From contig NZ_JAMXFC010000004.1 of NCBI RefSeq assembly GCF_025370755.1, forward strand, positions 145,505 to 209,504: a stretch of DNA of 64,000 bases, read 5' to 3'. The notes below the pieces were generated by a model that did not search any database, was not told the DNA's origin, and saw only the letters and a program-made list of their open reading frames with translations. This document shows, one piece after another, positions 575 through 30,676 of this stretch. Each line of letters starts with the position of its first letter. The first letter of the stretch is position 1. Source of the stretch: Laspinema sp. D2d. Its GTDB lineage: Bacteria > Cyanobacteriota > Cyanobacteriia > Cyanobacteriales > Laspinemataceae. A program made the position numbers and the translations under genes.

Positions 575-2215
575 TTATTCAGGTTCTCCCGCAATATCCG
601 GGGTTGGTACGACCAAGACGGGAACGGAACTCCCCGCTAAAACTCCTTGAAAAATTGACCTGATCGGCGTTTCTTCTTGGTTTGGATTAGGGCATTTTCC
701 GACCACAATTGCCGTGACCGGATGCGCTTTTGACCAAGCCAAGATTGTATCCACCACTGCCCCTTTTTCCCGGATGAACTGATGACGAATATCTGCTAAA
801 ATTCCCAGAGTCATCTCCTGAATCGCTTGAGTTTCCTGCGGGTTATCTACGGTGGTTACATACAAAACGATCGCCTCTCCATGACTACGCCGAGCTAAAT
901 CTGCCGTTTGTTTCAAGACTTCCCTGGCCCCCTTGGAACTCTCCAACGCTGCTAAAAACATAGTTCGAGTATTCACGGTTACTTTGGTGGGGTCTACTTC
1001 TCCTTTTTTCAGCAATTTTGGAGCAAAAGTGGGAATCGCCCAAGCCCCCAAAGGCGCTGTCACTAAAATTGACAACGCAGCAATGGCTAAAATAATTTCA
1101 CCGCCTTCAATGCCATAGGCTAAAGGTAATGCACCCAAGGCCGCTTGCACCGTTGCTTTTGCAGAATTTCCCGGTAATAAAAACAGTTTTTCTTGCCAAT
1201 TCCAATTGCTTCCTGCTGTCGAAAGAGTCCAACCAATGGTTCTCCCGATTAATAAGCCCACTGCTAAAATAGTTAAGCCCGGTAAGAACATTTCTCCCAA
1301 AACATGGAGCTGAATACTGGCTCCCATTAACACAAATAAGATAATTTCGGCCACAATCCACAGGCTATTAAATCCGTTGCGGAGTCGGCGGGCCAGGGGT
1401 GCATCCAGTTCGATTAGAAAAAATCCCATCGACATCACTGCTAGATACCCTGAAAAGTAAGGGAATTCCCGGGCAGTAAGCACGGCAACGGCGGCAACAA
1501 CGGCGGCAATTAAGATATCTTGGACGGGATTTTTACTCCAGCTTTGCCGTTCCAGGAGAGAGACTAATAATTGGGCGGCTAAATAACCGGCAACGATTCC
1601 TAAAACAATCTGGATAATAGCTTGGAAGGGAAGTAAGAGAAGCGGATTTAATGAGAGTCCCCCGGGCAAAATAATTGCCTCGATTTCCCCTTGCTGGAGG
1701 AAATTTAACAGTAAACTAAAGACGAGTAAGAGGACTACATCCGAGACGGCAGACCCAGTTAAAATAGCATCGGGAATGCCTTTTTTGACGCCCCAACCCA
1801 AGCGTTTGAGACGCAACATTCCTGGGACAATAACGGCGGGAGATTCAGCAGCAATAATGCAACCGAGGAGTAACCCAGTTAATAGGTCAAACTGGAAGAG
1901 AAACACAGAAGCAATGGCGATCGCCCCCGTTTCCAGGATAGCGGGTAAAATGCCCAATCGCAGGGCGACGGTTCCTTGTTCCGCCAACTTGTCGCGATCG
2001 AGTCCGAGTCCCGCTTTCATCAAGATAATCATCACTGCCATTGTTCGTAAATCATCGGCAGCAGCGAGAATTTCCGGTTCTAAGCGGTTTCCGACTTCGG
2101 GACCGAGGATGACTCCCACCAAAATCATGCCAATGAGGGGGGGTGCACCGAGACGACGGGCGAATTGACCCGCAAAAAAGCCCATTCCCAGGATCCAAAT
2201 TATACTGATTAACAT
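575..2215 (-). CDS. CPA1-type Na+/H+ antiporter with a C-terminal UspA-like (universal stress protein) domain
   Basis: The N-terminal ~400 aa are polytopic membrane with Na+/H+ exchanger-like helices (LIGMILVGVILGPE ... MKAGLGLD). The C-terminal ~130 aa (EAIVLYVTTVDNP...AIVVGK) resemble the Usp alpha/beta fold. The ORF is 546 aa. Confidence 0.8.
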   Translation of the reverse strand: MLISIIWILGMGFFAGQFARRLGAPPLIGMILVGVILGPEVGNRLEPEILAAADDLRTMAVMIILMKAGLGLDRDKLAEQGTVALRLGILPAILETGAIAIASVFLFQFDLLTGLLLGCIIAAESPAVIVPGMLRLKRLGWGVKKGIPDAILTGSAVSDVVLLLVFSLLLNFLQQGEIEAIILPGGLSLNPLLLLPFQAIIQIVLGIVAGYLAAQLLVSLLERQSWSKNPVQDILIAAVVAAVAVLTAREFPYFSGYLAVMSMGFFLIELDAPLARRLRNGFNSLWIVAEIILFVLMGASIQLHVLGEMFLPGLTILAVGLLIGRTIGWTLSTAGSNWNWQEKLFLLPGNSAKATVQAALGALPLAYGIEGGEIILAIAALSILVTAPLGAWAIPTFAPKLLKKGEVDPTKVTVNTRTMFLAALESSKGAREVLKQTADLARRSHGEAIVLYVTTVDNPQETQAIQEMTLGILADIRHQFIREKGAVVDTILAWSKAHPVTAIVVGKCPNPNQEETPIRSIFQGVLAGSSVPVLVVPTPDIAGEPE

Positions 2216-2564
2216 TGCTCATGCTCCTGAACAGGTGTGAAGGGGCTGGTCCAGGAGAGGATTGATGCGATCGCCCTACCTCCCGGCATTCAGCCCGGAC
2301 AGGTAGGAGCCATCAGCCTTTCAGCCCCCCATCGGGATCGCTGAATCGGCGGTTATGGCGAGCTCCATCGCCTTCAATCTTAAATCAGAACTTAATATAG
2401 CATAAATTTCCGCAACAATCCAGTAATTGACCCATTTTTTTATTAGACAGAACGACTCAAAAATCATCCCTCTGCTGCCACAATCTCTTTCTGGAGATAG
2501 AAACCTTCAGAGGATTAAGTTTTGTAAAATTCAAAGCAAGTGGGAATTTAACAGGAGTTTTTTC

Positions 2565-4262
2565 ATGTCCCAGTACGATGTAATTATCATTGGAGCCGGT
2601 CATAACGGCTTAGTTTGTGCCGCTTATCTTTTAAAAGCCGGTAAAAGTGTTTTACTATTAGAAAAACGCTCAATTCCTGGGGGTGCAGCAACCACCGAAG
2701 AATCGTTGCCTGAAGAAGCCCCAGGGTTTAAATTTAACCTCTGCGCGATCGACCATGAATTTATCCATCTCGGACCCGTGGTGGAAGAATTAGAACTCAA
2801 AAAATACGGATTAGACTATCTGTATTGTGATCCGGTCCTCTTTTGTCCGCAACCCGATGGAAAATACTTCCTCGGGCATAAATCCGTAGACAAAACCTGT
2901 GAGGAGATTGCCCGCTACAGTGAGCGGGACGCGCAGAAATATGGAGAATTTATTCACTACTGGCAGAGAGTTTTGAATGCGATCGCTCCCATATTCAATG
3001 CCCCGCCTAAATCGATTATCGATATTACCGGCAATTATAATTTCGATAAAATTAAAGACCTTTTGTCTTTACTAGGAACCCCAGATAAAATCCTCGATTT
3101 TGCCCGAACCATGCTCAGTAGTCCTCAAGATATGTTAGAGGAATGGTTCGATACCGAAGTCGTCAAAGCACCCTTAGCTAGACTCGCCGCAGAAATGAGC
3201 ATTCCGCCCTCACAAAAAGGGATGTCTGTGGGTGCAATTATGATGGCAATGCGTCATAATCCTGGCATGGCAAGACCCAGAGGAGGAACCGGCGCACTCA
3301 CCCAAGCATTAGTGAATCGAGTCACCAGTCTTGGGGGTGAAATTTTGTGCGATCGCGGCGTTGAACGAATTTTAGTGGATAATAATCGCGCCGTCGGTGT
3401 CCGCGTGGATGGAGGTCAAGAATACCGCGCTAAAGAAGGGGTAATTTCCAATATTGATGCCAAACGAGTCTTCTTAGATTTAATCAATCCGGGAGATGTA
3501 GATTCCAGCGACCCCAACTTACGCGATCGGGTGGATCGCCGCATTGTCAACAACAATGAAAGCATCCTCAAACTGGATTGTGCCCTCTCAGAAATGCCGC
3601 GATTTGAAGCCTACAATCACCAAGATGAATATTTAATTGGGTCGGTTGTTATTGCCGATTCCGTTCATCATGTGGAAGAAAGTCATAGTCTCTGTCAACT
3701 TGGTAGGATTCCTGATGAAAATCCCTCCATCTATGCCGTTGTTCCCACCGTTCTTGATCCATCAATGGCCCCGGAAGGAAAGCATACCCTGTGGGTGGAA
3801 TTCTTCGCTCCTTATCAGATTCATGGCGCAGAAGGAACCGGACAAAATGGCACGGGATGGACTGATGAACTGAAAAACAAAGTGGCCGATCGCCTGATTG
3901 ATAAACTATCGGATTATGCGCCGAATCTCAAAAATTCAATTATTGCGCGACGGGTAGAAAGTCCAGCGGAACTGGGCGCTCGCCTTGGGTCTTATAAGGG
4001 CAATCATTACCATATTGATATGACCTTAGACCAGATGATTTTCTTCCGTCCTCTGCCAGAAATCGCCAACTACAAAACTCCCATTGATGGGTTATTTTTA
4101 ACCGGCGCTGGTACTCATCCCGGTGGTTCAATTTCTGGAATGCCCGGACGGAACTGTGCTCGGGTATTTTTATTCCAGCAGCAACCCATGAGCCAAACCT
4201 TAAAAGATGCGACCAATTCGGTCAAGTCAATGGCAAATTCTGTGTTTAATTTGTCCAGTTAA
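2565..4262 (+). CDS. FAD-dependent oxidoreductase of the phytoene desaturase/CrtI-like family (COG1233)
   Basis: A Rossmann dinucleotide motif DVIIIGAGHNGLVCAAYLLKAGKSVLLLEK sits at the N-terminus. Length (~566 aa) and the C-terminal FAD motif (GLFLTGAGTHPGG) fit this family. The start at 2565 follows an AGGAG RBS. The track start at 2427 is probably too far upstream. Confidence 0.8.
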   Translation: MSQYDVIIIGAGHNGLVCAAYLLKAGKSVLLLEKRSIPGGAATTEESLPEEAPGFKFNLCAIDHEFIHLGPVVEELELKKYGLDYLYCDPVLFCPQPDGKYFLGHKSVDKTCEEIARYSERDAQKYGEFIHYWQRVLNAIAPIFNAPPKSIIDITGNYNFDKIKDLLSLLGTPDKILDFARTMLSSPQDMLEEWFDTEVVKAPLARLAAEMSIPPSQKGMSVGAIMMAMRHNPGMARPRGGTGALTQALVNRVTSLGGEILCDRGVERILVDNNRAVGVRVDGGQEYRAKEGVISNIDAKRVFLDLINPGDVDSSDPNLRDRVDRRIVNNNESILKLDCALSEMPRFEAYNHQDEYLIGSVVIADSVHHVEESHSLCQLGRIPDENPSIYAVVPTVLDPSMAPEGKHTLWVEFFAPYQIHGAEGTGQNGTGWTDELKNKVADRLIDKLSDYAPNLKNSIIARRVESPAELGARLGSYKGNHYHIDMTLDQMIFFRPLPEIANYKTPIDGLFLTGAGTHPGGSISGMPGRNCARVFLFQQQPMSQTLKDATNSVKSMANSVFNLSS

Positions 4263-10050: not shown

Positions 10051-10632
10051 ATGTCTACCGCCCCCAAAATTCTCGCCTTTGCCGGAAGCGCTCGCGAAGC
10101 GTCCTTTAACAAAAAACTCGTTCAAATTGCGGCCAATGGCGCTAGAAAAGCCGGTGCAGAGGTCACTTATATTGACCTGAGAGATTTCCCAATCCCCCTG
10201 TTTGACCAAGACTTAGAAGCCGCAGAAGGAATGCCAAGGTATGCTCAGGAGTTGAAATCGCTCTTCTTTGCTCACCAAGGTGTGTTGATTGCCTCTCCGG
10301 AGTATAATAGTACCATCAGTCCCCTGCTCAAAAATGCGATCGACTGGGTATCTCGTCCCGCGCCAGGTGAACCGATGCTGGCCGCTTTTTCCGGTAAAGT
10401 TGTGGGAATTATGAGTACCTCTCCCGGTGGTTTAGGAGGATTACGGGGTTTAGCTCAACTCCGGGAAATGCTGGCGAATATTAGTATGATTGTGGTACCG
10501 AATCAAATAGCGATTCCCCAAGCCTTTGAAGCCTTTACAGAATCGGGAACGTTAAATGACCCCAAAAAGCAAGAAACGGTGGAAAATATCGGTGTCACAG
10601 TAGCACAAATGTTAACCAAGTTGAATGCTTAA
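10051..10632 (+). CDS. NADPH-dependent FMN reductase (flavodoxin-like fold, ChrR/SsuE-type)
   Basis: ILAFAGSAREASFNKKL...YIDLRDFPIPLFDQDLE is typical of NADPH-dependent FMN reductases. An AGGAG RBS precedes the ATG at 10051. Confidence 0.85.
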   Translation: MSTAPKILAFAGSAREASFNKKLVQIAANGARKAGAEVTYIDLRDFPIPLFDQDLEAAEGMPRYAQELKSLFFAHQGVLIASPEYNSTISPLLKNAIDWVSRPAPGEPMLAAFSGKVVGIMSTSPGGLGGLRGLAQLREMLANISMIVVPNQIAIPQAFEAFTESGTLNDPKKQETVENIGVTVAQMLTKLNA

Positions 10633-10800
10633 TTTAAGCAGAATGGTTAGCGTAATTCCGATTAATTTATCTTTCTGAATTATTTCAAAGGGTAAGAAAC
10701 CGGGTTTCGGCGTTAACTTTGGCTGACTCTGCTAAGAGTTAGGTAAAGAAACCCGGTTTTTGAGTTATTTCAAAGGGCAAGAAACTGGATTTTTGAAAAT

Positions 10801-13146
10801 CTATTCTTCAATTTTTGTGCGAATAAGCGTTAATAAATCGCGCGTTTTATAAGGTTTAGATAAATAGGTCGGGCCGCTCTTTTCCGTTGATGCGGATACG
10901 GGAAGATTGCTCATCAATCCACTAACGGCAATAATTTTAATGGCGGGATTAATTTTTTGAAGTGCTTTTAGGGTGAGTTTTCCATCCATTAATGGCATCA
11001 TCATATCCAGAATCACCACGGCAATTTCTGAGGACCGTTGACTGTAGAGGGAAATAGCCTCCATGCCATCAGCAGCCGTTAATACATTATAGCCAAATTT
11101 TTGGAGGAGGGCTTGAGCAATTTCACAGATGGCAACTTCATCATCTACGACTAAAATTAACTCCCCGGATCCGAAAGGGAGTTCGGTTGGTTCTGCAGTT
11201 AGCACTTCCGTTCCCTGCATGGCAGGCAAGTAGACAGTAAAAGCACTTCCTTTGCCAATTTGACTAGAAACGGATAAAAATCCGCCATGATTTTTAACGA
11301 TACCTCGAACCGTGGGTAACCCGAGTCCCGTGCCTTTTCCTAATCCTTTGGTCGTAAAAAAAGGTTCAAATAAGCGGTCTAAAATTTCCGGGGGAATCCC
11401 GGTTCCTGTATCGCAAATTGTGAGTTTAATATAAGAACCCAGTTGAGCCTCGGGGTCGAGGGTTAAATCGGATTTGGTGAGGGTGAAGTTTTCAGCCTGA
11501 ATCGATAAAGTTCCCCCGTTTGGCATCGCATCCCGAGCGTTGACGCACAGATTCATCAAGATTTGATGGAGGTGAGTAGGGTCGCCGGAAATCAACCAAA
11601 GTTTGGGGTTAATTGTGGTAGAAATTTGAATAGATTTGGGAAAGGTTTCTCGGGCGATCGCGACGATTTCATCAATCAGGTGTTTGATTTGAACCAGGGT
11701 TCGATTCCCATCCAACCCTTTGGCAAAAGATAGCACTTGTTTGAGCAGGTCCGCGCCGCGCAAGGTGTTAATTTCTAACATGGAAATTAAGCGCATTTGC
11801 TGGGCATTTAAGGGGAACATTTCCAACAGTTGCACCGCCCCCAAAATGGGGGTGAGAATGTTGTTCAAATCATGGGCAATGCCACTGGCTAAAGTGCCAA
11901 TACTTTCGAGGCGTTGGGCGCGCAAAAACTGGGCTTCAAGCTGTTTTTTCTCCGTAATATCTGTATTCACTGACAGGATGGAAAAGGGCCGATCGCGCTC
12001 GTCTCGGACTAGGGTCTGACGACTGGCAACGGTGATGGATTTACCCCCTTTGGTGACTTGTTCTAACTCTCCATGCCATTCGCCGGTTGTGAGGACCGTT
12101 TGCTCGATCTGGTTGAGTTCTTGGGCGCTTTTCACATCAAAAAGATGACTGCTGCTTTGGGCGATCGCTTCGCTGCGGGTCCATCCATATAATTTTTCCG
12201 CACCTTTATTCCAAAATACAATATTCTGCTGAAGGTCTTTGACCCAAATTGCATCGGTGGCAACATCTAAAAGCGCTGCCTGCTGGCGGACCTGTTCTTC
12301 AGCGCGTTTGCGCTCAGTGATATCGTATAATGCCCCAACAATTTCTTCACTTTGTTTCTCCCCTTTACAAATCAGCTTCATTTCATCCCGCACCCAGCGA
12401 TAACTCCCGTCTGTATTCTGGAACCGATACTCACTGAGGGAATGACCGATTTGGTACAACTGCTTGATACTGGAAAATAGCGCCGGTGCATCATCGGGAT
12501 GAATGCGATCGCGCCAAAATGAGGAGTCCCCTAAAATTTCTTCCGGTCGATATCCCAAATGTTCGAGAATATTCTCACTCACAAAGGTCGGGCAGTAAGG
12601 GTGGTCAGAAGGGCAGGTATAAATCACGGCTGGACTGGAGGACAACAAGTATTGAAGCTGACTTTGCGTGGCGATGAGTGCCGATTCCGTCCGTTTTAAT
12701 TCCTTAATTTGATGTTGGAGTTCCGACTCCCGTAAAACCCGTTCCGTGACATCTTCAATGGTGGCGATCGTGCCAATCACTTGAGATGCTTCCATAAGGG
12801 GAGCAATCTTAGCACTTTGTAGCATATAAGGCACGCTTTTATAGACATCGGTTGGGAGCATGGGTAACAAAAACCCATGTAACCGCTGAGATAGGAGGGT
12901 AACTTGTCCGGCTAGGGCTTGGTAAAAAAATCGATCTAATCGCCGCTGCTTTAATTCGGGATAAATTTCTAGTAAATTTCTCCCCACCACCCGATTCACA
13001 CTCAACCCACTATAGAGTTCCAGCCAACGATTCCAACTTTGGATATTCAAATCTACATCGGTCGTAAATATCCCTCGGTCAGCTAAGTCATTGACCCAAT
13101 GAAGGAGATCTTGATTAGAGTTGAGCGGATCGGTAATATTGCTCAT
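10801..13146 (-). CDS. PAS-domain hybrid sensor histidine kinase with C-terminal receiver
   Basis: There are about three PAS/PAC repeats, then a HisKA domain (HDLNNILTPILG), an HATPase_c domain (GTGLGL) and a C-terminal REC domain (LVVDDEVAICE...DMMMPLMDG). Confidence 0.9.
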   Translation of the reverse strand: MSNITDPLNSNQDLLHWVNDLADRGIFTTDVDLNIQSWNRWLELYSGLSVNRVVGRNLLEIYPELKQRRLDRFFYQALAGQVTLLSQRLHGFLLPMLPTDVYKSVPYMLQSAKIAPLMEASQVIGTIATIEDVTERVLRESELQHQIKELKRTESALIATQSQLQYLLSSSPAVIYTCPSDHPYCPTFVSENILEHLGYRPEEILGDSSFWRDRIHPDDAPALFSSIKQLYQIGHSLSEYRFQNTDGSYRWVRDEMKLICKGEKQSEEIVGALYDITERKRAEEQVRQQAALLDVATDAIWVKDLQQNIVFWNKGAEKLYGWTRSEAIAQSSSHLFDVKSAQELNQIEQTVLTTGEWHGELEQVTKGGKSITVASRQTLVRDERDRPFSILSVNTDITEKKQLEAQFLRAQRLESIGTLASGIAHDLNNILTPILGAVQLLEMFPLNAQQMRLISMLEINTLRGADLLKQVLSFAKGLDGNRTLVQIKHLIDEIVAIARETFPKSIQISTTINPKLWLISGDPTHLHQILMNLCVNARDAMPNGGTLSIQAENFTLTKSDLTLDPEAQLGSYIKLTICDTGTGIPPEILDRLFEPFFTTKGLGKGTGLGLPTVRGIVKNHGGFLSVSSQIGKGSAFTVYLPAMQGTEVLTAEPTELPFGSGELILVVDDEVAICEIAQALLQKFGYNVLTAADGMEAISLYSQRSSEIAVVILDMMMPLMDGKLTLKALQKINPAIKIIAVSGLMSNLPVSASTEKSGPTYLSKPYKTRDLLTLIRTKIEE

Positions 13147-25118: not shown

Positions 25119-26852
25119 TTAAAATAGAAAATACCGCTGGGCTAAGGGCAAGACTTGCGCGGGTTCACAGGTGAGTAATTGACCATCGGCCCAAACTTGA
25201 TAGGTTTCTGGATCAACTTCGATATAAGGCAGGGTTTCATTTAATTTCATATCCCGTTTACCCACTTTTCGCGTGTCGGAAACGGCGATCGCCTGTTTTC
25301 GCAATCCTAACCGAGTTGGTACTTCTAATTCCAATGCCGCTTGGGAGACAAAGGTAAAAGATGTGGCAGTCCGAGACCCTCCAAAACTGGCAAACATCGG
25401 CTGAGAATGGACGGGTTGGGGCGTGGGAATACTGGCATTCGCATCACCCATTTGGGCGTAGGCGATCGCCCCGCCTTTGATGACTAATTCCGGTTTCACC
25501 CCAAAAAATGCCGGACGCCACAAACATAAATCTGCCAGTTTGCCTTCTTCAATCGACCCCACATAGTTAGAAATACCGTGGGTAATTGCGGGATTAATGG
25601 TATATTTGGCAATATAACGTCGCGCCCGGAAATTATCATGTTCTGTGGTACTGGGAATTGCATCTTTGCGGTCATCTGGGGACAAAAACCCCCGTTGTAC
25701 CTTCATTTTATGCGCCGTTTGCCAAGTGCGAATGATGGTTTCTCCCACCCGTCCCATTGCCTGAGAATCGGAGGAAATCATACTAAACGCCCCGAGGTCA
25801 TGTAAAATATCCTCGGCAGCAATGGTTTCGCGACGGATGCGGGATTCAGCAAAGGCGACATCTTCGGGGATACTGCGATCGAGGTGATGGCACACCATCA
25901 GCATATCCAGATGTTCTTCTAAGGTATTAACTGTATAAGGCCGCGTCGGATTAGTGGAAGAGGGGAGGACATTTTTTTGTCCGCAAACCTTGATAATATC
26001 CGGGGCGTGTCCTCCGCCAGCCCCTTCTGTATGGTAAGTATGAATAGTGCGGTCTTTAAAGGCGGCGATGGTTTCTTCCACAAATCCCGCTTCATTCAGG
26101 GTATCGGTATGGATGGCAACTTGTACATCATACTCATCGGCAACGGTGAGACAAGTATCGATCGCCGCTGGAGTCGTTCCCCAGTCTTCGTGTAACTTTA
26201 ATCCCATTGCACCAGCGAGGACCTGTTCCACTAAAGCGCGGGGTCTGCTGCTGTTGCCTTTTCCCATAAACCCGAGATTCACCGGGAAGGCATCGGCAGC
26301 TTGTAACATCCGGTGAATGTTCCAAGGTCCTGGAGTACAGGTGGTAGCATTTGTGCCTGTAGCGGGTCCAGTCCCCCCGCCTAACATAGTGGTAATTCCC
26401 GAGGCGATCGCCACCTCAATCTGTTGGGGACAAATAAAGTGTATATGGGCATCGATTCCCCCGGCGGTGAGAATCATCCCCTCCCCGGCGATCGCCTCGG
26501 TTCCTGGACCAATAATAATATCAACCTGGTCTTGAATATAAGGATTTCCTGCTTTACCAATTTTAAATATTTTGCCATCCCTGATGCCCACATCGGCTTT
26601 CACCACTCCCCACCAATCCAGAATCAGCGCATTGGTAATCACCAGATCCACCGCCCCGCTATCATTGGCAATGGGGGACTGTCCCATCCCATCGCGGATG
26701 ACTTTCCCCCCGCCAAATTTCACTTCATCGCCGTAGGTGGTTAAGTCTTGTTCAACTTCAATAAATAATTCTGTATCAGCTAACCGAATGCGATCGCCCA
26801 CCGTTGGGCCATAGGTTTCCGCATAAGCGCGGCGATCCATTTTATAACTCAT
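25119..26852 (-). CDS. ureC: urease alpha subunit
   Basis: Full-length UreC (577 aa) with the canonical N-terminus [29 protein letters not shown]. Nickel-site His motifs ([15 protein letters not shown]) are present. Confidence 0.95.
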
Positions 26853-27224
26853 TGATGTTCCCTCACTCCATTCTCGCCCCTCATTTTAGGGTTCCAATTA
26901 GTTTATCCCATTTTAGGGAGAATTAAACCTTTGGGAAACCGTGGCAATTAAACAAAATAAAGAATCTACATGAATGCATCGAAATAGATGACGTCATACC
27001 AAATCTGATTACAAAAAGTCGGTTTTCTTTCTTAGCCCGCGCCCGCTGGCTTCGTCTGTATAGCCCCAGGCTTGACGCTGCGGGGTTTTATAGCCCGACT
27101 ACAACCGGATTCCGTATCAATAAGGCGATCGCAACGCAAGTTTCAAAGTAAACACCCCACACCCTTGCGAGTGGGGGTGTTTCTCAACCTCCAAAAATCG
27201 GATTTGGTTTCAATCCTAATCGGG

Positions 27225-29267
27225 TTAATTCCAATTCCCAATCATGGTAAACGCCGACCAAAAATAAGGATGAGATAGGTTCATCGTTTTTTCTATCCCC
27301 AATTCCGGGGGTAAAGGGACAGTTGTACCATTCGAGAGAACTAACATTCCATTTTCTATGCGCACCTCTCCCCTTAACAGTGCCAGTTGAGTTTGCCGTA
27401 AAGCTTCGGCTTTAAGGGGCTTTTCTCCCAGTTGGGAATAAAATTCACTCATTAATCCTAAAGTTCCCGCATCGCTGACATACCAGAAACTCGCTAACGA
27501 TGCTTTCGCCCCAGAAAGTACCGCTAACCCGGCAAATCCCAACTCAGCTTGGGTATCTCCTACTGCCGTCCGACAAGCACTTAAGGTTAATAGTTCAATG
27601 GGAGGATTCTGCGAGGTATTCCACCCCAGTTCCGTGGCTAAGTCTCGAATTTGGTTCAGCCCGACCCGACTATCGTAAAACGTGATAAAAGAGTTATCCA
27701 AATTTCCCCCTTGAAATTCGGCGTGGGTTGCCAAATGGATAATTCCATATTGTTTTTCCAGGTTAATTTTTCGGAAATTAGCGGCAGTAAACTCTTCATT
27801 CAGGAAGACATTTCCCTTCCACGGATCGCTGACAATATTTTGTAACTCAGTCGGCACTCCAGGCAAAGGATTAAGATCTTCAAAAATAGCCGAACCCATC
27901 CCTAAAACTTCTCGGTTGCGGATATCGGAATAGGTGACATCGGTTAAGCCAAAACTGGGGACTAAAGCAACGGCATATTTTTCCACTAAAAACTGTTCCC
28001 CATCATGTAATGCCCCCAGGGGAAGGGTTCTCAACCCAGAATCCATCGAAAAAACTAAGGTTTCAATCCCATTGGCTTCTAGTTGTGCTTCCATTGGAGC
28101 AATCAGGGACTGATAGAGTTGTTGGGAACTGGGCAAGTAACTCCGAGTGTTGATCTTTCGGGAATTAGTCAGTTCCGATCGCAAGTTCTGCACCTGTTCA
28201 AAAAGCTGTGTCTGAGAGACATTGGGCACGGTTTCGCGAACGGCTATATCTGTTGTCCTCTCAATCAATCCTTGGGCTAAATCCGTGGAAGCCACTAAGT
28301 CAGAACTGCCCCCCGACACTCGAAAATTGTGCGGGAAAATCATCACCAGTTCTAATTGTTCCGCTAACGCAGAGACATAAATAAATGCACTCTTGTTACC
28401 CGTCGCTTGCCACAAATCATACAAAGTTTGGGCAATATCATCGGGAGTCGCGGTTTCCCCAAATAACTGCACTTCTAAATAATTGCCAAACTCCATTGCC
28501 TGATATTCTTCCAACATTTGAACCGCCACCCCAACATCAGCAACAGCTAACTGACTTTCATAACCCGGGCGATCGACTTCTTGATCAGAAAGTGGACTCA
28601 TGGGCTGTGCCTCTCCCGTTGTGCTGGGGGCATCTTCAAGAATCTGACCCTGTATAGGATTGGTACTTTCGGTTGTAGGGTCCGGTTCGGGATTATTCTC
28701 ACTCACCGGAGGCGGAATTTCCTCCCCACTGGGTATCTCTGGATTCTCGGGGATGACAATCGGGGCACTAGGTTCAGGCGAATCAGTATTAATTGGTTCA
28801 AGGGTTTGAATGGGAATCGGTGTCAGCACTTCCCCTGGGCTGTCAACAGGGATGACAGGGGTATCCCCAGGTGGGATGTCTGCGGGAGTTTCCGTAGGAG
28901 TTTCCGTAGGAGTCTCTGTGGGAGTGTTTGTAGGAGTCTCTGTGGGAGTGTCTGTAGGAGTCTCTGTGGGAGTTTCCGTAGGAGTCTCTGTGGGAGTGTC
29001 TGTAGGAGTAGGTAAAGGAGTGATAACTCCTGTGGGTATGATCGGTGGTGGTTCATCGGGTACCGGATCTACGGGTACTGGATCTACGGGTACTGGATCT
29101 ACGGGTACTGGATCTACGGGTACTGGATCTACGGGTACTGGATCTATGGGTACGGTGGGTCCCGTGACATCCGACTGATTTTGCGTCTGGGTGATGGCAG
29201 GAGCAGGAGCGATCGCCACCAATACCACAGGCAGAACCCATTTCATGCCTAACTTCAATAGTTTCAT
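27225..29267 (-). CDS. secreted CHAT-domain (caspase-like) protein with N-terminal Pro/Thr-rich tandem repeats
   Basis: A signal peptide is followed by (PVD)n and (TPTE)n low-complexity repeats. The C-terminal CHAT domain carries the His (IIHLATHAEF) and Cys (LSACRTAVGD) catalytic dyad. Confidence 0.85.
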   Translation of the reverse strand: MKLLKLGMKWVLPVVLVAIAPAPAITQTQNQSDVTGPTVPIDPVPVDPVPVDPVPVDPVPVDPVPVDPVPDEPPPIIPTGVITPLPTPTDTPTETPTETPTETPTDTPTETPTNTPTETPTETPTETPADIPPGDTPVIPVDSPGEVLTPIPIQTLEPINTDSPEPSAPIVIPENPEIPSGEEIPPPVSENNPEPDPTTESTNPIQGQILEDAPSTTGEAQPMSPLSDQEVDRPGYESQLAVADVGVAVQMLEEYQAMEFGNYLEVQLFGETATPDDIAQTLYDLWQATGNKSAFIYVSALAEQLELVMIFPHNFRVSGGSSDLVASTDLAQGLIERTTDIAVRETVPNVSQTQLFEQVQNLRSELTNSRKINTRSYLPSSQQLYQSLIAPMEAQLEANGIETLVFSMDSGLRTLPLGALHDGEQFLVEKYAVALVPSFGLTDVTYSDIRNREVLGMGSAIFEDLNPLPGVPTELQNIVSDPWKGNVFLNEEFTAANFRKINLEKQYGIIHLATHAEFQGGNLDNSFITFYDSRVGLNQIRDLATELGWNTSQNPPIELLTLSACRTAVGDTQAELGFAGLAVLSGAKASLASFWYVSDAGTLGLMSEFYSQLGEKPLKAEALRQTQLALLRGEVRIENGMLVLSNGTTVPLPPELGIEKTMNLSHPYFWSAFTMIGNWN
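28870..29150. repeat. in-frame tandem nucleotide repeats (15-bp and ~30-bp units) encoding PVDPV and TPTETP repeats
   Basis: The 15-bp unit ggtactggatctacg is repeated about 7 times. The 30-bp unit gtaggagtctctgtgggagtgtctgtagga is repeated about 4 times. Confidence 0.85.
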
Positions 29268-29297
29268 TGTGAGATTCCTTTTATAAAAAAGCCTGTC

Positions 29298-30344
29298 TTA
29301 GAACCGATCAAAGGTAAACCCATAACCAATCCCCAAAATAAACCTTGTACCATCTCCAGCATTTCCAGTTATGTCTGTAATCGCCGGAGAAATCACCAAG
29401 GGAATATTTCGGAACGGCACAACAGAGACTCCCAAAGTGAGGTCTTGACCCGTCCATTCGGCGATCGCACTCACAGGAGGAGCAACCCGTACTGCTACCG
29501 ATCCAAACAGTCCAAGAGTCCCCTCTTCCGCCTCGATATCCGACTCCGATCGGTACTGTCCCCCTCCAACCCCCAGGGTCAAATACAATTGACTCCAAAG
29601 CTTCTCTGGCTCATCTAAAACAAACCGTTTCGTTACCACGCCATACCCAGAGGTTCCTCCATCGGTTTCTCCCCAAGTGAGCGCTCCTTGTACCCCAGCG
29701 GCAATGCCAAAATCGTTCGGCAATTGCCGATGTAATTTTAAGCTCATACTGCCATCCTCAAAGGTATCGCCCCATAAATCGGTTACCGTCACACCAACGG
29801 TTAAACCAATATTTTCCCGAGGATTTCCAAAGCCAATACCGAATCCGGCAACCCCATCGCTGCTATCTGTAAACCGAGTTCGTTCCTGTAAACCCACCCC
29901 AAATCCTGCACTTCCCCAACCGGCACCATAACCGGAAGGAATCATCACTGTAATCCCTGGAGAAGCGAGATAGGGTTTGCTTTGAGTGGTAACATCCGTG
30001 CGCGGGCGAAACGGGATTCTTTCAGGAATGAACGGTTGTTCCCCGGGAATCCCTCGATGTAAGGGAACCCCTTGGCGGGGGGCTGTTCCTTCCGGTGGGG
30101 TGGCGGGTTCCCCTTGGGCAATCTCACTTTGGGGGTGAACGGCATCCGGTTCAGGAAAAAGCACTTCGGTGCGATCGCCCTGAATGGGTTGGAACAATAA
30201 AGGCTCCAGATTGGCAGCATCCGCAGAGAATTCCAGCTTATCCCCGAACCCCTCTGCTTGCCAGGGTTCTACCTCACCCGCTTGGGCGACATCAACGGGA
30301 AACAAAATCCCAAGGAGAAGTAACTCAACGATCATACATTTCAT
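29298..30344 (-). CDS. putative outer-membrane beta-barrel protein with a Pro-rich N-terminal region
   Basis: A signal peptide is followed by about 12 amphipathic alternating beta-strand segments. The C-terminus ends in an aromatic residue (..GYGFTFDRF). The gene lies 30 bp upstream of and co-oriented with the CHAT gene. Confidence 0.55.
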   Translation of the reverse strand: MKCMIVELLLLGILFPVDVAQAGEVEPWQAEGFGDKLEFSADAANLEPLLFQPIQGDRTEVLFPEPDAVHPQSEIAQGEPATPPEGTAPRQGVPLHRGIPGEQPFIPERIPFRPRTDVTTQSKPYLASPGITVMIPSGYGAGWGSAGFGVGLQERTRFTDSSDGVAGFGIGFGNPRENIGLTVGVTVTDLWGDTFEDGSMSLKLHRQLPNDFGIAAGVQGALTWGETDGGTSGYGVVTKRFVLDEPEKLWSQLYLTLGVGGGQYRSESDIEAEEGTLGLFGSVAVRVAPPVSAIAEWTGQDLTLGVSVVPFRNIPLVISPAITDITGNAGDGTRFILGIGYGFTFDRF

Positions 30345-30676
30345 TAGTGGCGAGGCTAAACAATAAATACCCCTTTGAGGATTGTACCCATTCTGATCCA
30401 CAAAATCACATTTTCCTTTACCGAACTTAAGACAGAGATGTTTCCCCTTCATCCCAGGGGGAAGAATCTAGTCAAAAATACTTACCTTTGTTCTCTCACC
30501 TGGGTGCAAAGTGTGACAGCGATTGTAGCAATTCTGACTCAAGCGATCGCTGTCACGCATCGGGTGTATTTTATCCGGGATAGCGAGTTGCTGATCCAGA
30601 TCACCCCATCCCTAAAATCCTTGTTTATAGTAAAGCTATCCTATAAACTATTCTCTGCCTGGAGGATATTTAAAAC

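Follow-up and report, generated by a model that had tools for sequence, protein, structure and literature searches.

A conserved cyanobacterial gene pair encoding a predicted 12-stranded outer-membrane barrel and a secreted CHAT-domain protein, a candidate two-partner export or display module

To characterize a pair of adjacent genes in the cyanobacterium Laspinema sp. D2d, we analyzed a 64,000-nucleotide stretch of its genome (contig NZ_JAMXFC010000004.1, positions 145,505 to 209,504; hereafter the window, in whose numbering coordinates are given). The pair encodes a beta-barrel protein and a secreted protein with a caspase-like CHAT domain, and we tentatively read it as a dedicated two-partner module of the outer membrane. 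As stated in the original prediction, which was made from the DNA alone, both open reading frames (ORFs) lie on the minus strand, with the barrel gene 30 nucleotides (nt) upstream of the ATG of the CHAT gene. The barrel gene likely occupies 29298..30344 (348 amino acids), because its orthologues, according to the ORF list and the alignment, begin with MKCM, which places the start at position 30344. The original prediction had taken the longest ORF (29298..30452, 384 amino acids). The intergenic spacer, from the barrel stop codon to the CHAT ATG (29268..29297, minus strand), is exactly 30 nt long, which is consistent with co-transcription of the two genes. The CHAT partner gene (27225..29267) encodes 680 amino acids.

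The barrel protein starts with a Sec-type signal peptide (MKCMIVELLLLGILFPVDVAQA, residues 1-22, 30279..30344), which was read by eye and ends in an A-Q-A cleavage motif. This is followed by a variable region (residues 23-94, 30063..30278) with a mean column conservation of 0.21 and a predicted local distance difference test score (pLDDT) of <50, by a conserved pre-barrel segment defined from the alignment (residues 95-144, 29913..30062), and by the barrel domain (residues 145-344, 29313..29912), after which only the tail FDRF and the stop codon remain. The AlphaFold2 (AF2) model, based on 48 homologues, arranged residues 145-344 into 12 antiparallel strands with pLDDT ~85-95 and left the N-terminal region before them disordered. 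This model and its structural matches agree with the ~12-stranded barrel that had been proposed, and the proposed aromatic residue at the C-terminus is present as well (GYGFTFDRF; GY.FSF in orthologues), where it forms an aromatic beta-signal. In the prediction, an even number of antiparallel strands thus closes into a barrel, and the protein has a Sec-type signal peptide and a C-terminal aromatic residue, as expected of an outer-membrane barrel. Its insertion in the outer membrane is predicted, with indirect support from the N-terminal SLH fusions of its relatives and from UniRef, which names the PCC 6304 orthologue an outer membrane beta-barrel domain protein.

A profile search of the barrel protein, which the original prediction had proposed, matched no named family: Pfam, NCBIfam, PADLOC, and the PDB-sequence profiles gave no match. 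The best structural matches include KdgM, NanC, a COG4313 channel, FapF, and autotransporter beta-domains. The SLH domains of relatives precede the barrel, as they do in SLH-bearing autotransporters (bioRxiv 10.64898/2026.01.22.700529), and we therefore take the N-terminus of the barrel protein, including residues 23-94, to be periplasmic. Because of this assignment, the short loops GGGQ(F/Y)RSE, EWTGQD, and TDITGxAGDGxRF would lie on the outer face. These loops are conserved at least as strongly as the strands, and the residues that are invariant across the whole family are mostly found within the loops assigned to this face. Such conservation of loops is unusual for a porin.

The CHAT protein was originally described as secreted and as having a long Pro/Thr-rich spacer, and its N-terminal half fits this description. 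Its Sec-type signal peptide (MKLLKLGMKWVLPVVLVAIAPAPAIT, residues 1-26, 29190..29267) ends in a small-x-small site that is followed by a conserved Gln. This Gln opens the mature N-terminal motif QTQNQSDVTGP (residues 27-37, 29157..29189). Residues 38-229 (28581..29156) form a Pro/Thr/Glu-rich spacer that is disordered as judged from its composition and from pLDDT <50; 55 Pro and 35 Thr were counted in 202 residues (27% Pro, 17% Thr). Among orthologues, the length of the spacer ranges from 14 to 986 residues. Tandem Repeats Finder (TRF) located two tandem DNA repeats in the spacer, one of 15 nt x 6.5 with 97% matches (29057..29153), which encodes PVDPV units, and one of 12/24 nt (28871..29009), which encodes TPTE units. 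The regularity of these repeats suggests recent expansion and a readily altered stalk length.

The globular unit of the partner begins with a conserved helical/beta pre-domain (residues 230-378, 28134..28580), which starts with EVDRPGYE; in partners generally, this unit opens with (I/V)DRxx(Y/F)E. The pre-domain is followed by the caspase-like CHAT domain (residues 379-678, 27234..28133), which matched the Pfam family CHAT (PF12770) with an E-value of 6.9e-61 and 206.7 bits (cut-off 24) over profile positions 2-289 of 289. The catalytic His lies in IIHLATHAEF (H511, 27735..27737; H515, 27723..27725) and the catalytic Cys in LSACRTA (C565, 27573..27575). H511, H515, and C565 are invariant among 51 homologues, so the intact His/Cys dyad of the original prediction stands. 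The partner is thus a genuine member of the CHAT family with an intact dyad, and peptidase activity is predicted for it. C565 is the sole Cys of the mature protein, and 41 of 59 orthologues likewise have a single Cys. Across cyanobacterial orders, the CHAT unit is 40-58% identical. In the AF2 model of the CHAT protein, residues 230-680 were globular with pLDDT ~90 and residues 1-228 were disordered. The best Foldseek matches of residues 230-680, with E-values from 5e-12 (the Csx29 TPR-CHAT protein) to 3e-6, were Csx29, separase, and the periplasmic domain of DdvA.

Two other roles of the CHAT protein were considered and rejected. The idea that the N-terminal motif docks intramolecularly onto CHAT as a pro-peptide found no support, as the full-length AF2 model left residues 1-228 disordered and gave pLDDT ~50 at the motif. 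A defence-system reading had neither supporting context nor a PADLOC match of weight: the PADLOC matches to the CHAT protein were weak, and the better one fell within the low-complexity spacer.

The conservation of the pair was determined in a genome scan with one genome per species, which gave 252 relatives of the barrel, and the best 80 loci were kept. In 77 of these 80 loci, at least 200 nt were available 3′ of the barrel gene, and these loci were regarded as informative. A partner gene lay directly downstream on the same strand in 74 of the 77 informative loci. In 63 of the 77, a CHAT ORF directly followed the barrel gene, and in 11 the contig stopped inside an ORF with the characteristic N-terminus of the partner. 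The original prediction had made conservation of the two genes as neighbors elsewhere its own test, and they are indeed neighbors in these loci from several cyanobacterial orders. Named records place the pair in Oscillatoriales, Nostocales, Pleurocapsales, Chroococcales, Spirulina, Prochloron, and others. Culturable strains with the pair include Oscillatoria acuminata PCC 6304 (AFY82777.1, locus tag Oscil6304_3199, and its neighbor AFY82778.1), Allocoleopsis franciscana PCC 7113 (barrel AFZ21450.1), and Stanieria PCC 7437 (CHAT AFZ34754.1). Among 59 orthologous pairs, most gaps between the barrel and partner genes measured 9-43 nt (median 30 nt), and stop codons separated the two genes in all 59. 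Reverse look-up from the CHAT gene found the barrel gene immediately upstream in three of three orthologues. This adjacency is far beyond chance. No neighbor besides the partner was kept across orders in the loci surveyed.

Nearly all surveyed loci contained one barrel-partner pair. Barrel-partner modules duplicate as pairs. Tandem duplication of the whole module (barrel-partner-barrel-partner) was observed at locus L114 (2525..8033) and at loci L115 and L108, and locus L168 (1604..6067) has one barrel gene followed by two CHAT partner genes, both of which encode the motif. In 32 of the 59 pairs, including the pair in the window, the CHAT ATG is in frame with the stop codon of the barrel gene, with ~20 expected; this excess may merely reflect shared ancestry. 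Programmed read-through and a recently split fusion were both rejected, as additional stops often occur in frame and the partners all have signal peptides of their own; the absence of fused proteins among 272 barrels also speaks against a split fusion.

In all partner proteins, a basic n-region, a hydrophobic core, and a small-x-small site are followed by the motif Q-[ST]-G-N-[QM]-S-D-[IV]-T-G-P. Among 97 distinct partners, the Ser and Asp of this motif are present in 100%; the Asn occurs in 93-100% and the opening Gln in 86-98% (98% in CHAT partners). Some partners contain two to four repeats of the motif. Of 143 non-redundant loci, 109 matched a strict regular expression for it, and the misses were mostly variant spellings or failures of the start-site heuristic. 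A likeness was also seen within the barrel itself, where T-D-I-T-G of the invariant last loop (TDITGNAGD, 29325..29351) resembles the core S-D-[IV]-T-G of the partner motif; a few barrels have N-Q-S-D-G in the first loop. This likeness could be due to chance, or could possibly represent strand or loop mimicry.

Next, the barrel family was traced beyond the pair. A profile search of 1.84 billion representatives returned 1,129 barrel clusters at 50% identity. Many members are longer than the barrel in the window, and 7 of the 10 long members tested contain SLH domains N-terminal of the barrel. At locus L083, such an SLH-barrel gene is followed by a CHAT orthologue. At locus L082, it is followed by a gene for a 204-amino-acid protein that has no CHAT domain, and the mature N-terminus of this protein is QNGNQSDITGP. 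A metagenome scan seeded with SLH-barrels gave 79 loci. Most of these barrels were followed by a motif-bearing protein with a signal peptide and ~200 to 650 amino acids, again without CHAT. The C-termini of the non-CHAT partners vary: some belong to a ~200-residue family with a helical end (…AYNA(L/M)I…PP.EL.AIQ…), and others are longer variants. None of the non-CHAT partners gave a Pfam match. One longer partner, with 654 amino acids (locus L134, 5780..7741), consists of three tandem ~200-residue non-CHAT units with several internal GN(M/L)SD copies. Because the non-CHAT partners of the barrel paralogues have the same motif, the motif is tied to the barrel: it goes with the barrel family and not with CHAT. 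The original prediction had given the barrel to the CHAT protein as its own device, which does not hold for a family of at least 1,129 clusters that also pairs with motif-bearing non-CHAT partners.

The barrel proteins also differ by kind of partner. The pre-barrel segment contains a family-wide SP..(F/Y)G..WG stretch and, ~35 residues ahead of strand 1, a second motif, F-x-P-x-x-[LIV]-P, which in the window reads FIPERIP (30012..30032). This motif was found in 70 of 74 CHAT-paired barrels versus 2 of 29 barrels without an adjacent CHAT gene, counts that are not phylogenetically independent. Both exceptions among the 29 are orphan orthologues (loci L024 and L050). Barrels with other partners have an LRQ(Q/R)(Y/F)(R/L)LP-type segment at this position. 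Even so, the pattern points to a match between the kind of partner and the periplasmic side of the barrel protein. In all 272 family members compared, the barrel ends at most 10 residues from the C-terminus, and none is fused to CHAT.

The closest paralogues of the CHAT partner have an N-terminal TPS domain. They are 39-53% identical to it over the aligned part, mostly covering 47-66% of the query, and the pre-domain described above belongs to the globular unit that they share with it. Their layout runs parallel to that of the barrel-paired proteins, with an outer-membrane secretion signal, a spacer, and CHAT, except that the TPS domain replaces the short motif. No TpsB gene was found beside the TPS-CHAT paralogues in three loci. 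Because no TpsB gene adjoins them, these paralogues support export through their TPS domain only. The original prediction had called a secreted CHAT protein unusual. Secretion of the partner is borne out by its signal peptide, whereas its supposed rarity is contradicted by the TPS-CHAT paralogues and by the periplasmic TPR-CHAT domain of DdvA, an anti-sigma factor of Myxococcus (PMC11506125). Among cyanobacteria, CHAT domains are commonly found in secreted proteins.

The other neighbors of the pair change from genome to genome. A homologue of the major vault protein (30677..33325, plus strand) is divergent from the barrel gene in the window. It is full-length and of the eukaryotic type, with the Pfam domains Vault repeats, Vault_2/3/4, and MVP_shoulder (E-values down to 2e-66), and its adjacency to the barrel gene is limited to the Laspinema/Oscillatoria clade (8 loci). 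The gene of the urease alpha subunit (25119..26852) lies on the other side. Both the vault and the urease neighbors are retained in the closest relatives only. The sole other recurrent neighbor is a gene for a COP23-like protein (~175 amino acids), which lies upstream of the barrel in 35 loci and is not found in the window. The COP23-like gene is co-directional; its product has a signal peptide, contains Cys, and ends with PLWWPW, and it belongs to Pleurocapsales/Chroococcales-type loci (L048, 5130..5654; L166, 1242..1769). A precomputed Pfam match to COP23 exists for the L166 copy, and hmmscan of the L048 copy gave none. A COP23 gene is also found near the SLH-barrel module of locus L082. Genes of secreted-type proteases occur near some modules, namely a Trypsin_2+TPR gene directly upstream of the SLH-barrel at L082 (1284..2567) and, at L083, a gene of the trypsin-PDZ (HtrA-like) type in second place downstream of the SLH-barrel (10176..11378). 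At locus L024, where the barrel has no adjacent CHAT gene, a Peptidase_C14 (caspase-family) gene lies ~3 kb upstream on the opposite strand (679..2589, minus strand). A promoter/terminator scan of 26800..30800 in the window gave counts at or below the shuffled expectation.

The most economical reading of these sequence patterns is that the barrel and its partner touch physically and that the N-terminal peptide serves as the recognition element. That the pair is a dedicated two-partner module for export or display at the outer membrane we consider close to an even call, and we adopt this reading tentatively. Both proteins would cross the inner membrane via Sec, and the first would take up its 12-stranded form in the outer membrane, leaving its N-terminal extension in the periplasm. 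In many relatives, this extension carries peptidoglycan-binding SLH domains. Removal of the signal peptide would expose the near-invariant peptide of the partner, and the barrel would read this peptide as an address label. The Cys-free, disordered Pro/Thr spacer and then the unfolded CHAT domain would trail through the pore, and the active His/Cys protease would end outside the outer membrane, either on a flexible stalk or released. Such a route would follow the same logic as two-partner, curli, and Fap secretion, but with a small barrel of the autotransporter/FapF kind and a new signal of very short length.

Export or display is favored because the closest CHAT paralogues carry a TPS domain in the same layout. 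It is also favored because the hypervariable length of the spacer and the scarcity of Cys fit unfolded passage and a surface stalk, and because the structural relatives of the barrel include the peptide-conducting FapF and autotransporter beta-domains. Short N-terminal signals for secretion across the outer membrane, such as those known from curli, point in the same direction. A precedent exists in the Fap system, where a Sec-exported cysteine protease is encoded together with a 12-stranded secretion barrel (PMC5557850). More broadly, the pair may represent a previously unrecognized, "split" type-V-like two-partner pathway of cyanobacteria that moves or anchors proteins by means of an ~11-residue signal and 12-stranded barrels, often SLH-anchored; we put this forward as a possibility that falls somewhat short of probable. 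It is similarly possible, though again not to be taken as probable, that CHAT is the commonest cargo of such a pathway and that the ~200-residue helical proteins are another. The original prediction of a dedicated export or anchoring device coupled to a protease is thereby supported as far as the module is concerned. From the patterns above we infer contact, translocation and its direction, the final location and the substrate of the protease, and with these the choice among export, display, and a tether.

Several points weigh against export or display. In 3 of the 77 informative loci (L024, L027, and L050), the barrel has no adjacent partner. Signal peptides and topology were assigned from sequence features by inspection. 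Contact between the two proteins is itself an inference. The CHAT-specific pre-barrel motif would be periplasmic, which fits a periplasmic encounter with, and perhaps residence of, the CHAT domain. If the outer-face loops bind the partner motif, the remainder of the partner would, in the simplest topology, stay periplasmic. Furthermore, export would require passage of a 450-residue alpha/beta domain through a 12-stranded pore without a known energy source. No fused barrel-passenger protein ("Rosetta stone") was found among the 272 family members, and neither expression nor proteomic data on the pair were found.

Some of these points would be accommodated by a periplasmic tether, which we regard as rather unlikely but as the first alternative to consider. 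The N-terminal peptide would plug the lumen of the barrel from inside, while the spacer and CHAT stay periplasmic, comparable to the RcsF linker that threads through OmpA/OmpC/OmpF. The protease would then be retained on the periplasmic face of the outer membrane, a placement that is rather unlikely in the same measure, and would act on envelope proteins. It could possibly cut the F-x-P-x-x-[LIV]-P segment of the barrel itself, in parallel to the action on the FapF linker that was proposed for FapD, and the barrel stretch GEQPFIPERIPFRPR is possibly a candidate substrate region for cleavage by CHAT. The tether is supported by the near-restriction of this pre-barrel motif to CHAT-paired barrels and by its position, which is ahead of strand 1 and behind the SLH or N-terminal region. 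The N-terminal motif, being family-wide, could be bound by the loops that are likewise invariant in the whole family, and energy for translocation is not required. Periplasmic proteins of related kinds exist, namely the cysteine protease FapD (PMC5557850) and the CHAT domain of DdvA (PMC11506125). In contrast, disordered spacers of up to ~1000 residues that vary freely among close relatives would be awkward in the confined and protease-rich periplasm. The nearest CHAT paralogues have the TPS domain, a hallmark of export across the outer membrane, and the non-CHAT partners keep the same layout with unrelated C-terminal domains.

Still less support remains for two uncoupled neighbors, in which the barrel would be a small KdgM/NanC-type channel for solutes or else a structural outer-membrane protein, and CHAT an independent Sec-exported protease, the two being co-transcribed solely for their part in a common envelope process. 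This is consistent with the best structural matches, which include KdgM, NanC, and the COG4313 channel. However, the pairing outlasts all other neighbors across cyanobacterial orders, and paralogous barrels each keep a motif-bearing partner, with the modules duplicating as pairs. The partner motif and the pre-barrel segment track each other by class, and loops as conserved as the strands are not porin-like. We consider the uncoupled arrangement improbable. Finally, a contact-dependent or polymorphic-toxin-like effector, with CHAT as a toxin for neighbor cells and the barrel as its exporter by analogy with TpsA/CdiA, would agree with the existence of TPS-CHAT paralogues and with the CdiA-type layout of a C-terminal enzymatic domain, but is highly improbable given that the CHAT unit is conserved across orders rather than polymorphic, that no immunity-like small gene consistently follows CHAT, and that nearly all loci hold a single pair and not arrays of variant toxin ends.

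Read as an export or display module, the pair comes closest in its working to a cross between Fap, type V, and two-partner secretion, and it lacks defining features of each. Compared with Fap, no sequence relationship between the barrel in the window and FapF was detectable. An N-terminal coiled coil or helical plug was not predicted for this barrel, which is a weak point because the AF2 model has low confidence in this region. Genes like FapA, FapB, FapC, or FapE, which encode amyloid components, are missing; what is conserved is the barrel and the partner, plus the COP23-like gene in some lineages. FapD is C39-like, whereas the partner here is a caspase-like CHAT protein; here the protease itself bears the putative targeting motif and thus looks like cargo, not like an accessory. 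In autotransporters (type Va: NalP, EstA, Hbp; type Ve: intimin/invasin), the barrel and the passenger form one protein, whereas here they are separate and have their own signal peptides. The barrel in the window also gave no match to the Pfam Autotransporter or intimin-barrel families.

Two-partner secretion (type Vb) resembles the module in having two genes and in a cargo with its targeting element at the mature N-terminus and its functional domain at the C-terminus, and the close CHAT paralogues are genuine TPS-domain proteins. However, TpsB is a 16-stranded Omp85 transporter with POTRA domains, whereas the barrel here has 12 strands and no POTRA, ShlB, or Bac_surface_Ag match in Pfam. The partner in the window matched CHAT only and has no TPS domain, and the barrel-paired orthologues likewise have none. 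The signal is an 11-residue peptide, compared to the 252 positions of the Pfam TPS profile. In the curli system, mature CsgA begins with a short peptide that directs its secretion across the outer membrane, and CsgG is a 36-stranded nonamer of lipoproteins. The Slam (type XI) system uses a 14-stranded DUF560 barrel with TPR domains. Both systems are similar to the module in that a dedicated outer-membrane protein is encoded beside the cargo, but the barrel in the window matches neither Pfam family and has 12 strands. It also differs from the cyanobacterial SLH-OprB porins, as neither this barrel nor any of the 10 long family members contains OprB; SLH is the only significant Pfam domain of the long members. 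Csx29 (of Craspase), separase, and DdvA share with the partner the fold of residues 230-680 and the conserved His/Cys dyad. In contrast to them, the partner lacks TPR repeats, a transmembrane helix, and any CRISPR or anti-sigma context; it is predicted to be soluble and Sec-exported, with a disordered N-terminal stalk.

We found no publication on the pair, the barrel family, or the motif. Public records name the proteins "hypothetical protein", "CHAT domain-containing protein", or, automatically in UniRef, [quoted passage not shown]. New here are the mature N-terminal motif, its sharing by non-CHAT partners, and the CHAT-specific pre-barrel motif. Together they give a lead to the function of many "hypothetical proteins", both in the barrel family and among the non-CHAT partners, each a large set. 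The pair also places a conserved caspase-like protease with an intact dyad in the envelope of many filamentous and baeocyte-forming cyanobacteria, which prompts the question of what this CHAT protease cuts in the envelope or outside the cell. Transport of proteins across or onto the outer membrane is poorly understood in cyanobacteria compared to Proteobacteria. If the barrel does read the short peptide, this would be a new and compact signal for secretion or display, served by a small dedicated transporter across much of the phylum. Such a signal could then be used for surface display or secretion in cyanobacterial production strains.

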